Notes under the pieces: model-generated
What the model was told of the DNA's origin: nothing
Seen by the model: only the letters and a program-made list of their open reading frames with translations
The model's database searches: none
Source: an uncultured Actinomycetota bacterium
GTDB taxonomy: Bacteria; Actinomycetota; Actinomycetes; Mycobacteriales; Mycobacteriaceae
Length of the DNA stretch: 64,000 bases
Direction of reading: 5' to 3'
Assembly: GCA_963815705.1 (NCBI GenBank)
Contig: CAWFHQ010000007.1
Location: 170,687-234,686, forward strand
Position numbers and translations under genes: made by a program
Shown: positions 36,833 to 44,111 of the stretch, one piece after another
Layout of the letters: the number at the start of each line of letters is the position of its first letter
How positions within the stretch are numbered: position 1 is the stretch's first letter

Positions 36833-38335
36833 ATGACCGTGCCACTCAATTTGTCCAACCGGGACCAGAATTCGGGGCACCTGTTCTACAACCGGCGGCT
36901 GCGTGCCGCGATCACCCGGTTTTCCGTCCGGATGAAGCACGACGACCGTAAACAGCAAGCGGCCGTGGCGCTGTCGATCGTGCTTGTGGTCATCGGCATC
37001 GGGTGGATGGCGCTGCTTCATGTCATGAAGCCGTCGGGGTTGGTCGGCCATTCGTCGATCATCGGCGACCGCGATACCGGCGCGGTCTACGCGAAGATCA
37101 ACGGTCGGCTCTACCCCGCGCTCAACTTGACTTCGGCACGATTGGCGGTCGGGAGCGCGGGCTCTCCGACTTGGGTCAAAGCCAACGAGATCGCCAAGTA
37201 TCCGACCGGCCCGATCATCGGGATTCCCGGTGCGCCGGACAGCTTGCCGGTCACGGCGAGCGCCGAATCGGCGTGGTCGGTCTGCGACGCCGCGGCCGCC
37301 CGCGGCAGTGGGACCGCTCCGGTGGTGACCTCCATCGCCGGCCAGCTCTCCCCCATCGGCCGGTCGGAGCCGATGGGCCCGAAGCAGGCCATCCTGGCGA
37401 CCCACAAGGGCGCAACGTATGTGATCTGGCGAGGCCAACGCTCCCGCATCGACCCCGCGGACCGATCGGTGACATTCAACCTCGGCCTCGACCCCGGGGT
37501 GACCTACCCGATCGAAATCTCCAACGCCCTGTTCGACGCCATGCCCTCAACGGAACCCTTTGTGCTGCCTACGATTCCGGGTCGTGGGACCCCGTCGCGC
37601 TGGGTGCCGGGTTCGATTGTGGGCAGGGTGCTGGAAACCCGTGACGCCAGCGGCACCGTCAACGGCTTCTATGTGCTGCTGCCGGACGGCGTGCAGAAAA
37701 TCACCGGCTTCGTCGCGGACCTCTTGCGGACCGCGGATTCAGAGGGTTCGACGACGCCTACCCTGGTCGCGCCCGACAAACTGATTCAAATCCCGGTGGT
37801 CGATGTGCTCGACGTCGACTACTATCCGTCGGAGAAGCTGGATTTCGTTGACACCGCGGCGAATCCGGCAACCTGCGTGGGATGGCAGAAGCAATCGGGT
37901 GATCCGCAGGCCAGGATCACGATCTTCACCGGCCGGGGATTGCCGGTTCCGATCGGCATGGATTCCCGCCTGGTTCGGTTGGTTCGCGACGACCGCGACC
38001 CCAATTCCGCTGAGGCGCAACAGACGTTGGTGTTACCGGGTGCGGCGAACTTCGTGACGACCACCAGCGGCGTCGCGACGGCCGACAGCCGGGAATCTTT
38101 GTATTGGATTTCACCGCAAGGTGTTCGATACGGCATCCAATCGGATCACGCGACCTTGCAGGCGCTGGGGCTGGATCCGCGGCTGGCTGTGCAAGCACCC
38201 TGGCCGATCGTGCGTACCTTCGCGACCGGGCCCGCGATTGGGCGTGACGCCGCCCTAGTGGCGCGCGACGCTGTCACCGGGGGCGGTGCCGTGGCGCCGA
38301 TTCCCGATCTCAATGAACTGGCGGGCGGGGGTTAA
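36833..38335 (+). CDS. eccB: type VII secretion system protein EccB
   Basis: 500 aa with an ATG preceded by AAAGGAG. The N-terminus ..SGHLFYNRRLRAAITRFSVRMKHDDRKQQ.. is followed by a single TM helix (AAVALSIVLVVIGIGWMALLHVM) and a large extracytoplasmic domain with EccB-typical blocks (..YAKINGRLYPALNLTSARL..YWISPQGVRYGI..). Confidence 0.9.
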   Translation: MTVPLNLSNRDQNSGHLFYNRRLRAAITRFSVRMKHDDRKQQAAVALSIVLVVIGIGWMALLHVMKPSGLVGHSSIIGDRDTGAVYAKINGRLYPALNLTSARLAVGSAGSPTWVKANEIAKYPTGPIIGIPGAPDSLPVTASAESAWSVCDAAAARGSGTAPVVTSIAGQLSPIGRSEPMGPKQAILATHKGATYVIWRGQRSRIDPADRSVTFNLGLDPGVTYPIEISNALFDAMPSTEPFVLPTIPGRGTPSRWVPGSIVGRVLETRDASGTVNGFYVLLPDGVQKITGFVADLLRTADSEGSTTPTLVAPDKLIQIPVVDVLDVDYYPSEKLDFVDTAANPATCVGWQKQSGDPQARITIFTGRGLPVPIGMDSRLVRLVRDDRDPNSAEAQQTLVLPGAANFVTTTSGVATADSRESLYWISPQGVRYGIQSDHATLQALGLDPRLAVQAPWPIVRTFATGPAIGRDAALVARDAVTGGGAVAPIPDLNELAGGG

Positions 38336-38340
38336 GTAGC

Positions 38341-42899: not shown

Positions 42900-42905
42900 C
42901 CGAAG

Positions 42906-44111
42906 ATGCCCGATCCCAGGTGGACAGGTCCGCCCGAGATCATCGCCCTGATCTTCGAGGCGGGCAACCCGGCGTCGGTGCTTGCCAACAACGCCGTGTG
43001 GGTCACCGAGACCACCAACAAGGAACTGGCGGCCGGCCTTTCCAGCGTCAACTCCCTGGCCACGGCGGCGCAATGGCAGGGCGTAGGTGCACTCGCGTCG
43101 ATGGTTACCTCGACCGGCCTCAATGCCGGACTGCACACGCTGGTGGGCTGGACCGCGGAGAAGATCGGCGTCACGACGGCTGCCGTCGAGGCCTTCATGA
43201 TCGCGCGGTCGTCGGTCATCCCATCAGTGGTGTCGACGACTAACCGGTTTGAGTGGCAAGGATTGCTCGACACGAACTTCTTCGGTCAAAACACCCCGGG
43301 AATCATCGAGCGGGATACCGAGTACTACGGCGAACACTGGCCGCACAATTCGAGCATCGGTTGGACCTACTCCGGTGCGCTGGCCGCGCTGGTCGCGGCG
43401 CTGGCCGTTCCCCCGCCCATCGCCCCGATGGGTGCCTCGCCTGCCGGTCCGGCGGCGGCGGCCTCGGCCGTGGCGCAGGCGGCCGCGGAGGGCGGCATGA
43501 ACAACGCGATGCAAGTAGGTAGCCAAGCGACACAGGGTGCCGGTCAGGCGGCGTCCGCACCCGCCGAGGGCGGCAGCCAGCTCAGTTCACTCATGCAACA
43601 GCCGCTGCAAATGATCTCTGGCCTGACCGAACCGCTGCAGCAGGTCGTCAAGGCTCCGATGGATGCGTTCCAGGGGATGGCCAGCATGCCGCAGGGCTTA
43701 CTTCAATCGATGACGAGCGCGTTTTCGTCGGCGGGCGGAGGCAATGCCGGAGCGGCCGGCGCTGCCGCCGAGCCCTTTCTGGCCGGGGCGGCCGGTCCCC
43801 TTGGCGGAGGGGCTGGCGGCGGCGGCGTGGGTGCGGGCGGCAGCTTCCCGGGCGCCGGGTTGACCAGCTACACCCGTCCGACCAGCAGTTTTGAGCCAGA
43901 GACCGGGGGCAGACCGACGAGCCTGCGTGCTGGCGTGCTCAATGCGTCCGAGCTACGCGGTCCCACCTCCCGGACGGGAACCGGGATGGGGGGTTCGGCG
44001 ATGCCGATGTCACCGGCCGGCATGCTGGGGCACGGCAAGGAGGGCCAAGCCGACAAGGACGTCACCCGCGCTCGCGTGGTCGTCGGCGGCGACCCGACCG
44101 ACGAAACCTAG
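42906..44111 (+). CDS. PPE family protein (divergent, ESX-locus type)
   Basis: 401 aa starting 6 nt after the PE stop: MPDPRWTGPPEIIALIF.., a WxG motif (QWQGVG), ..[33 protein letters not shown].. (PPE domain blocks), and a Gly/Ala-rich C-terminus. Confidence 0.85.
   Translation: MPDPRWTGPPEIIALIFEAGNPASVLANNAVWVTETTNKELAAGLSSVNSLATAAQWQGVGALASMVTSTGLNAGLHTLVGWTAEKIGVTTAAVEAFMIARSSVIPSVVSTTNRFEWQGLLDTNFFGQNTPGIIERDTEYYGEHWPHNSSIGWTYSGALAALVAALAVPPPIAPMGASPAGPAAAASAVAQAAAEGGMNNAMQVGSQATQGAGQAASAPAEGGSQLSSLMQQPLQMISGLTEPLQQVVKAPMDAFQGMASMPQGLLQSMTSAFSSAGGGNAGAAGAAAEPFLAGAAGPLGGGAGGGGVGAGGSFPGAGLTSYTRPTSSFEPETGGRPTSLRAGVLNASELRGPTSRTGTGMGGSAMPMSPAGMLGHGKEGQADKDVTRARVVVGGDPTDET

Follow-up and report, generated by a model that had tools for sequence, protein, structure and literature searches.

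How a type VII secretion (ESX) locus that carries eccB and eccC, and neither eccD nor mycP, could serve a mycobacterium is the question raised by a stretch of 64,000 nt from an uncultured bacterium of the family Mycobacteriaceae (GenBank assembly GCA_963815705.1, contig CAWFHQ010000007.1, positions 170,687 to 234,686 of the forward strand). This whole stretch is called the window below, and coordinates given without an accession or locus name are positions within it. A preliminary description of this DNA had noted an ESX core reduced to EccB, EccC, PE and PPE between 36.8 and 44.1 kb; four + strand open reading frames (ORFs) matching these families, and nothing else, were confirmed in this interval. 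The explanation that we consider probable is that this block belongs to the front half of a divergent ESX-2-like locus for a type VII secretion system (T7SS), whose back half was relocated by a single old rearrangement, the two halves still forming one machine.

The block begins with eccB (36833-38335, + strand), which encodes a T7SS membrane core component of 500 aa (Pfam PF05108, 1.9e-147; NCBIfam equivalog TIGR03919, 463 bits with a cut-off of 154). After a gap of 5 nt follows eccC (38341-42420, + strand), encoding an unsplit FtsK/SpoIIIE-type ATPase of 1359 aa with two transmembrane (TM) helices and three ATPase domains (NCBIfam EccCa, 715 bits, cut-off 509; EccCb, 576 bits, cut-off 347). 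Both genes had been called intact, and the three P-loops of EccC were found at the nucleotides given before: GTSGSGKS at aa 499 (nt 39835), ATAQRGKS at aa 861 (nt 40921) and GRQGCGKT at aa 1155 (nt 41803). A Walker B motif stands behind each of them, and the three Walker A/B pairs were kept across 18 loci. The PE-like gene (42600-42899, + strand; PE36-like, 99 aa) starts after a gap of 179 nt; its product matched the Pfam PE model under the cut-off of 22 bits (E 0.0026, 18.4 bits) and aligned with Mycobacterium tuberculosis PE36 at 3e-11 (55% identity over 38 aa). Only 6 nt separate it from the last gene (42906-44111, + strand), which encodes a PPE69-like PPE protein of 401 aa (Pfam PF00823, 7e-17; 62 bits with a cut-off of 26).

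With gaps of 5, 179 and 6 nt, genes for EccD, MycP, EspG and WXG100 proteins cannot fit within the block, and tblastn with M. tuberculosis EsxD, EsxC, EspG2, Rv3888c, EccD2, MycP2 and EccE2 gave no match anywhere in the 64-kb window. The locus therefore has EccB and EccC, and it has neither EccD, EccE or MycP nor a WXG100 (EsxA/EsxB-like) pair. The absence of EspG and WXG100 genes noted earlier thus held for 36.8-44.1 kb; overlooked were an EspC-family gene and other Esp-like genes lying upstream. As also described before, the PPE stop ends at 44111 and the stop codon of the convergent MDMPI/Rv0036c-like gene occupies 44132-44134. The 20-nt spacer between them (44112-44131) is the end of the locus and the putative rearrangement breakpoint. 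The window itself starts inside dnaA (DnaA C-terminal domain at 3-377), which is followed by dnaN (898-2106), recF, gyrB and gyrA and, further on, by leuS (49797-52703). G+C content is 62-70% across the whole window, with no compositional break at the locus.

Relatives of the locus were collected by an EccB-alignment scan with one genome per species, which returned 325 relatives; the best 80 were analysed, and the sequence of named relatives was read within 10 kb of eccB. M. riyadhense, M. shigaense, M. xenopi and M. haemophilum have an EccB orthologue and fell outside the best 80. EccB orthologues were found in many slow growers, at 78-94% identity, and their loci occurred in a complete and a truncated state. 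In 25 of the 80 loci an espG gene was found downstream of eccC, with an Rv3888c-like gene and eccD next in most; PE/PPE and WXG100 matches were present in most of these complete loci, the WXG100 pair coming after the PPE gene. They belong to M. sp. SM1, ENV421, shizuoka-1, RTGN5 and many environmental metagenome-assembled genomes (MAGs). Their upstream genes are those of the window and their EccB is 74-80% identical to the window EccB. Metagenome loci extend the complete order to MycP-EccE-EccA, the full order being upstream cluster-EccB-EccC-PE-PPE-Esx-Esx-EspG-Rv3888c-like-EccD-MycP-EccE-EccA. The genes of the window correspond to the 5' portion of a locus that other mycobacteria carry in full.

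These complete loci bear on the proposal of a genuinely minimal new arrangement, in which EccB, EccC, PE, PPE and the upstream Esp-like genes would make up a self-sufficient system, or take a new role, without EccD or MycP. It draws some support from the upstream cluster with its EspC-family gene, which adjoins eccB wherever upstream sequence could be checked, and from a still smaller eccB-eccC form without PE/PPE in three loci (L039, L048 and L049). Against this, related mycobacteria carry the locus in full behind the same upstream cluster, which shows the full gene set to be ancestral, and each reduced form is complemented by loci made up of a back half only (see below). The solved ESX-3 and ESX-5 membrane complexes, moreover, contain EccB, EccC, EccD and EccE. 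A minimal system is thus very unlikely.

The truncated state, with PE, PPE and then the convergent Rv0036c-like gene, was found in 26 loci among the best 80 of 325: those of M. montefiorense, M. ahvazicum, M. triplex, M. sherrisii, M. numidiamassiliense, M. rhizamassiliense, M. simulans, M. szulgai, M. angelicum, M. asiaticum, M. intermedium and several MAGs. M. decipiens (locus L004, obtained via protein look-up) has the same truncated ending and is additional to these 26; in M. triplex and M. decipiens the gene order is that of the window. The nearest relative among the best 80 of 325 was M. montefiorense (EccB 96% and EccC 97% identical), which places the window in the M. simiae complex. 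In trees built by neighbour-joining only, the truncated loci formed one clan in 100/100 bootstraps (concatenated EccB and EccC), with M. decipiens L004 and the window both inside, so the truncation occurred once. The spacer between PPE and the Rv0036c-like gene measured -4 to 224 nt in 18 of the 19 truncated loci measured, and 697 nt in M. ahvazicum.

That an assembly error had removed the downstream genes was among the conditions named earlier as fatal to the unusual arrangement. Doubtful assembly does occur among the relatives: in M. numidiamassiliense (NZ_FUEZ01000004.1, 78445-121472; L015 and L016) two 21.5-kb copies, 100% identical, lie inverted tail to tail, 28 bp apart, which is more likely an assembly artefact than a large perfect palindrome. 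Nothing of this is specific to the window. The same junction was found in 26 loci from independent assemblies, of isolates as well as MAGs, and a split of the ESX-2 genes into two genome sections was confirmed by polymerase chain reaction (PCR) in M. decipiens and M. riyadhense, according to Sous et al. (2024, PMC11237670). An assembly error is therefore given almost no credence.

The PPE/Rv0036c junction has gathered other sequence in some species. The spacers of L023, L026, L036, L070 and L078 (at about 17.2-17.4 kb of these loci) hold one to three tandem GC-rich units of about 45-55 nt each (...GGCTCTCTTCGCGC[GT]C[TG][AG]CGCGC[GT]CTCATCGCCC...), none of which is present in the window. In M. 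decipiens (L004, 17415-19358) a Ser/Thr protein kinase gene (647 aa, faint NHL-repeat matches) and small ORFs stand between PPE and the Rv0036c-like gene. Insertions at this junction were also seen in M. simulans, M. angelicum and others; where they occur, up to 9.6 kb separate the end of eccB from the Rv0036c-like gene, compared with 5.8 kb in the window.

Whether the truncated block is still under selection was assessed from pairwise ratios of non-synonymous to synonymous substitution rates (dN/dS), for which the window was paired with each of 12 species that carry a truncated locus; dS reached about 1. The ratios were 0.06-0.14 for EccB, 0.04-0.11 for EccC, 0.06-0.17 for the PE-like protein, 0.10-0.21 for PPE and 0.10-0.28 for two flanking genes; EccB and EccC thus lie below the flanking genes, and the check proposed in the preliminary description returned purifying selection. 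Median ratios of truncated and complete loci were 0.131 and 0.145 for EccB, and 0.092 and 0.093 for EccC. TM segments and Walker A/B motifs were equally conserved in the two groups, and frames were unbroken in the truncated loci, except for two MAG-derived loci in which EccC matched in two pieces. Because frames are intact, dN/dS of EccB and EccC is 0.04-0.14, motifs are conserved and the genes are at least as tightly constrained as those of complete loci, the block is intact, strongly conserved and not a relic. The suggestion that it is the decaying remnant of a deleted ESX locus can draw on the abrupt end of the locus 20 nt before a convergent gene, and M. tuberculosis has lost eccB, eccC, PE and PPE at the corresponding site; set against the invariant motifs and the ratios above, the chance of a relic is close to negligible.

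The missing genes were sought by a metagenome scan with EspG of complete loci as query, which recovered complete loci and, in addition, stand-alone back halves. In a tree of EspG, Rv3888c and EccD, the back halves L117, L118, L120, L123, L131, L136, L137, L148 and L161 formed one clade; L134 has the same flanks, with too little EccD to enter the tree. Their order is a WXG100 pair (identified with Pfam), EspG, Rv3888c-like, EccD, MycP, EccE and EccA, all of the divergent type, and no eccB, eccC, PE or PPE was found within 6-9 kb upstream. Instead, these loci directly follow homologues of Rv3909, mutT4, pcnA and Rv3906c. Such esx-first back halves are the exact complement of the half in the window. 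On the other side, the flank 3' of EccA (F420H2 quinone reductase, NmrA and a sigma factor) is common to the back-half loci, the complete locus L100 and M. avium ESX-2.

Three sets of adjacencies can thus be compared: in complete loci the upstream cluster runs through PPE into esx and on to EccA and the F420 flank; in the window PPE abuts the Rv0036c-like gene; and in the back halves pcnA-Rv3906c abuts esx, which again runs to EccA and the F420 flank. Given the shared F420 flank and a window that starts in dnaA, one inversion spanning oriC, with its ends at PPE/esx and at Rv3906c/Rv0036c, would yield both junctions. According to this model, the ancestral locus would have run on past PPE with a WXG100 pair, espG, an Rv3888c-like gene, eccD, mycP, eccE and eccA, and a single cut would have fallen in the PPE/esx intergenic region in the common ancestor of a large slow-grower clade. 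Inversion of a segment of about 60-70 kb containing oriC would be the most economical mechanism. The missing half would then sit about 20-30 kb beyond dnaA, just outside the window, a distance estimated from the H37Rv map.

Functionally, one membrane complex would unite EccB and EccC of the window half with the EccD, EccE and MycP that the back half encodes. EspG and EccA, also products of the back half, would serve the PE/PPE pair of the window, and EccC would recognise the back-half Esx pair. The EspC-family, DUF2694 and DUF4226 proteins, whose genes precede eccB, would be candidate additional substrates or chaperones. We infer that the source organism carries the back half, at the predicted position, and that the two halves work as one machine.

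Promoter-like elements mark places at which such a locus might be cut. A conserved element, GGTGAAGTGACAGC, with a -35-like GTGACA followed some 17-20 nt on by TAnnnT, lies upstream of the first esx gene. Counted as TGAAGTGACA with at most one mismatch, it was present within 400 nt of this gene in 57/57 loci, complete or split, and 78-130 nt before it in the examples listed (L034, L089, L099, L120 and others, e.g. L120 9194-9203). Homology between loci ends upstream of this element, which is probably the promoter and leader of an esx...eccA unit; a small conserved GC-rich hairpin was seen between the element and the start codon. In the window, a related box sits upstream of PE (42456-42469), and the best sigma-70-type promoter-like site of the region (TCGACA-17-TAGAAT, 42462-42490, + strand, 10/12 positions) lies upstream of PE-PPE. 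The box and its -10-like element upstream of PE are conserved across the truncated clade; the 14-mer box matched 4 times in the window with 5.8 matches expected, which is not significant alone and is informative only by its conserved position. The locus looks like three putative transcription units: the upstream cluster with eccB-eccC, PE-PPE, and esx...eccA. A split would be tolerated because the locus would be built from separate units.

Cuts at these borders have recurred. L039, L048 and L049 stop right after eccC, without PE/PPE; several other back halves start with PE-PPE, in unrelated flanks; and the M. tuberculosis-type ESX-2 of M. avium runs from PE-PPE to eccA without eccB and eccC. 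This shows that independent splits have occurred several times at module borders, either eccC/PE or PPE/esx, with the constraint on eccB and eccC kept.

Which ESX type the window locus represents was assessed from identities. The third ATPase domain (D3) of EccC scored 244 bits with the solved M. tuberculosis EccC2 D3 (6jd5), compared with 133-153 bits with EccC5. Two ESX-2 loci of the M. tuberculosis complex (MTBC; L005 and L006) were reached via an M. tuberculosis EccC2 D3 query rebuilt from the 6jd5 alignment, a search that returned only fragmentary gene calls; in comparison with these loci, EccB is 66% identical to EccB2, PPE 39% identical to PPE69, and EccC 58%, 71% and 48% identical to EccC2 over its three parts. 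Canonical ESX-2 components, in contrast, share 84-90% identity between M. tuberculosis and distant slow growers: EccD2 is 84-88% identical in M. avium (85%), M. colombiense, M. marinum and others. In the complete relatives of the window locus, EccD is 51-53% identical to M. tuberculosis EccD2 and EspG about 50% identical to EspG2. Since its EccB (66%) and EccC (48-71%) fall below the 84-90% of canonical ESX-2, the window locus is not an orthologue of M. tuberculosis-type ESX-2; to judge from these identities, it is ESX-2-like, closest to ESX-2, and a separate lineage.

Two recent origins were rejected. Partial duplication of another ESX locus, which had been named earlier as a possible refutation, does not fit, the nearest paralogue type being only 66% identical and the truncated form being old (dS up to about 1). 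A recent plasmid origin does not fit either, the best plasmid EccB being 53% identical. Within the MTBC read assemblies themselves, eccC2 was called in two separated pieces in L005, and from L006 eccB2 is missing, together with the 5' portion of eccC2 and all genes that lie between eccB2 and the DUF5631/5632 gene. Both variants resemble deletions or frameshifts of canonical ESX-2 at strain level.

Canonical M. tuberculosis ESX-2 (Rv3884c-Rv3895c) consists of eccB2, eccC2, PE36, PPE69, esxD, esxC, espG2, Rv3888c, eccD2, mycP2, eccE2 and eccA2. The window has the first four genes of this contiguous eccB-to-eccA series in the same order and is without the last eight, and it lies on the dnaN-gyrA side of oriC. 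Paralogous NlpC/P60-like and DUF5631/5632 genes precede eccB2 as well, and the complete relatives of the window locus share the full M. tuberculosis ESX-2 gene order; they differ in sequence, their EccD being about 52% identical to EccD2 where that of M. avium is 85% identical.

Divided ESX-2 loci have been described before. For the M. avium complex a 'transposition of EccB2 and EccC2' was reported (Newton-Foot et al., 2016, PMC4791881), and eccC2 of M. intracellulare lies 16 locus tags from mviN. This locus, like that of the window, is divided into an eccB-eccC part and a part reaching to eccA. It differs in being of the M. tuberculosis-type lineage (EccD2 85%) and in being cut between eccC and PE, with PE-PPE staying with the back half; with another lineage and another cut point, it was rejected as the same event and is regarded as independent. 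Plasmid ESX-P modules, which are related to ESX-2 and ESX-5 and from which chromosomal ESX-2 was proposed to derive (Dumas et al., 2016, PMC4779608), resemble the window locus in their EccB-EccC-PE-PPE-esx order and NlpC/P60 gene; the window locus differs in being chromosomal and vertically inherited in its clade, and in the low EccB identity given above.

The closest precedent is a split divergent ESX-2 already reported from M. decipiens and M. riyadhense. According to Sous et al. (2024, PMC11237670), the ESX-2 proteins of these species are 50.4-67.8% similar to those of M. tuberculosis (locus average about 56%), compared with 87-90% for M. kansasii, M. lacus and M. shinjukuense. The low identity is shared by the window (48-71%, with 50-68% published), as are gene order and flanks of the M. 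decipiens eccB-eccC section: L004 carries the Rv0023-Rv0030-like cluster, EccB, a 1359-aa EccC, a 101-aa PE-like protein and PPE, with EccB 82% and EccC 86% identical to those of the window. It differs in its extra genes, including the Ser/Thr kinase gene, between PPE and the Rv0036c-like gene. Nothing came up in a literature search on ESX-2 of the M. simiae complex. The available text of Sous et al. (2024) does not deal with the upstream cluster, with how broad the clade is, or with selection and mechanism. The present analysis adds how widely the split is spread and that it arose once, that constraint is unchanged, what the complete ancestral locus looked like, that the Rv0023-Rv0030-like cluster is attached to it, that cuts recur at unit borders, and the inversion model.

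Several points weigh against a relocated back half that still works with the front half. The back half was seen on metagenome contigs only, and not in the source genome, which was read within the window, or in a named member of the truncated clade, read to 10 kb from eccB. The link between the truncated clade and the back halves consists of complementarity, and of a single clade on each side, not of co-occurrence in one genome. The junction Rv3906c/Rv0036c, predicted for genomes that carry a complete locus, was not observed there. The neighbour-joining trees do not settle which group is sister to the truncated clade, and the promoter calls are consensus matches. The available text of Sous et al. 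(2024) does not assign genes to the two sections.

These points leave room for an orphan module, whose back half would have been lost and whose EccB and EccC would work with EccD, EccE, MycP and EspG of another ESX system, such as ESX-5, ESX-3 or ESX-1. Strong purifying selection shows function and leaves the partners unspecified, and ESX-2 of M. decipiens was described as heterogeneous (Sous et al., 2024). On the other hand, the same front half co-exists with a second divergent-type section in M. decipiens and M. riyadhense, complementary back halves are common in environmental mycobacteria, and the constraint equals that of complete loci. An orphan module is therefore unlikely. The preliminary description had also offered a module borrowing EccD, MycP and EspG in trans from another ESX system; this was right in spirit, the best-supported donor being the locus's own displaced back half and not another system. 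Relocation of the back half by one old rearrangement, with the two halves in one machine, accordingly stays the probable reading.

A bolder proposal, which we put forward tentatively and would not yet bet on, is that divergent 'ESX-2' is no variant of ESX-2 and represents a distinct, sixth chromosomal ESX lineage of slow growers. Its ancestral, contiguous unit of about 20 genes, from the Rv0023-Rv0030-like Esp-type accessory genes to eccA, would have been split by a single oriC-spanning inversion in the ancestor of a large clade, its halves being kept as one machine on either side of the origin. M. tuberculosis, having lost this system, would have been left with Rv0023-Rv0030 as its orphaned accessory or substrate genes. 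If so, Rv0023-Rv0030 would possibly now be served by canonical ESX-2 or another ESX system. Among the matches listed, carriers of the divergent type were M. triplex, M. shigaense, M. riyadhense, M. kubicae, M. haemophilum, M. decipiens, M. xenopi and M. asiaticum, and carriers of M. tuberculosis-type EccD2 were the MTBC, M. shinjukuense, M. lacus, M. marinum, the M. avium complex, M. scrofulaceum and M. parmense. The two sets did not overlap among these matches, and both are scattered over the slow-grower tree, which is only a hint of ancient paralogy with differential loss, or of replacement by horizontal transfer.

The upstream cluster consists of eight genes immediately 5' of eccB and co-oriented with it (30418-36787). 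The first (30418-31206, + strand) encodes an Rv0023-like HTH_3/HTH_31 regulator (Pfam PF01381, 3.3e-12); most related loci have it ahead of eccB too, with 62-93% identity. It is followed by an Rv0024-like gene for an NlpC/P60 peptidoglycan hydrolase-like protein (31080-32027, + strand; PF00877, 2.5e-22), translation of which probably begins downstream of the ORF's first start codon; the protein is 44% identical over 130 aa to a 289-aa protein encoded just upstream of M. tuberculosis eccB2. Two DUF4226 proteins come next, a small one of 120 aa (32043-32405, + strand; PF10774, 6.3e-37), syntenic in related loci, and a large one of 479 aa (32533-33972, + strand; PF10774, 9.2e-38).

The fifth gene (34018-34335, + strand) encodes the EspC-family small protein, a candidate secreted substrate of 105 aa (PF10824 T7SS_ESX_EspC, 3e-27; dN/dS 0.07-0.23). 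Its stop is overlapped by 4 nt by the start of a DUF2694 gene (34332-34643, + strand; 103 aa, PF10904, 4.6e-52; dN/dS 0.05-0.15). An Rv0029-like DUF5632/DUF5631 protein with a Pro-rich linker follows (34880-36397, + strand; PF18645, 2e-39, and PF18646, 1.4e-36), 39% identical to a paralogue encoded upstream of M. tuberculosis ESX-2 and matching PDB 5imu at 1e-31. The last gene (36434-36787, + strand) encodes a DUF2710 protein (PF10921, 2.4e-52; weak YbaB-like match, 6.7e-4) and ends 46 nt before eccB. PDB sequence searches with the EspC-family and DUF2710 proteins gave no match.

All related loci that extend far enough upstream have DUF5631/5632 and DUF2710 genes ahead of eccB, and most have the whole cluster there. 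Paralogues of the NlpC/P60 and DUF5631/5632 proteins, 38-44% identical to them, are encoded upstream of M. tuberculosis eccB2. In size and order the eight genes presumably match Rv0023-Rv0030 of H37Rv; in M. tuberculosis, an insertion sequence remnant and bioF2-fadD34 presumably lie between Rv0023-Rv0030 and Rv0036c. A literature search linking Rv0025-Rv0031 with ecc genes found nothing relevant. The association with eccB suggests that these M. tuberculosis families are ESX accessory or substrate genes.

Two further genes were recorded near the locus or its relatives. In M. triplex (L001-L003, 6437-9601) an extra ORF of 1054 aa, with no Pfam match, stands between the DUF5631/5632 and DUF2710 genes; it is absent from the window and from M. 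decipiens. In the window, on the opposite strand and 10 kb upstream of the locus, a gene at 25285-26859 encodes a PPE protein whose C-terminal region is of the PPE-SVP type and ends in a SHOCT domain (PF09851, 2e-7), an uncommon domain pairing.

With the relatives taken into account, the apparent anomaly is removed: the 'minimal' ESX core is most likely half of a split system. Genes of the Rv0023-Rv0030 type (EspC-family, DUF2694, DUF4226, DUF5631/5632 and DUF2710) are physically tied to a type VII system, which offers a testable idea of their function. The results also suggest that surveys counting contiguous ESX loci only would misjudge ESX-2 in many non-tuberculous mycobacteria.

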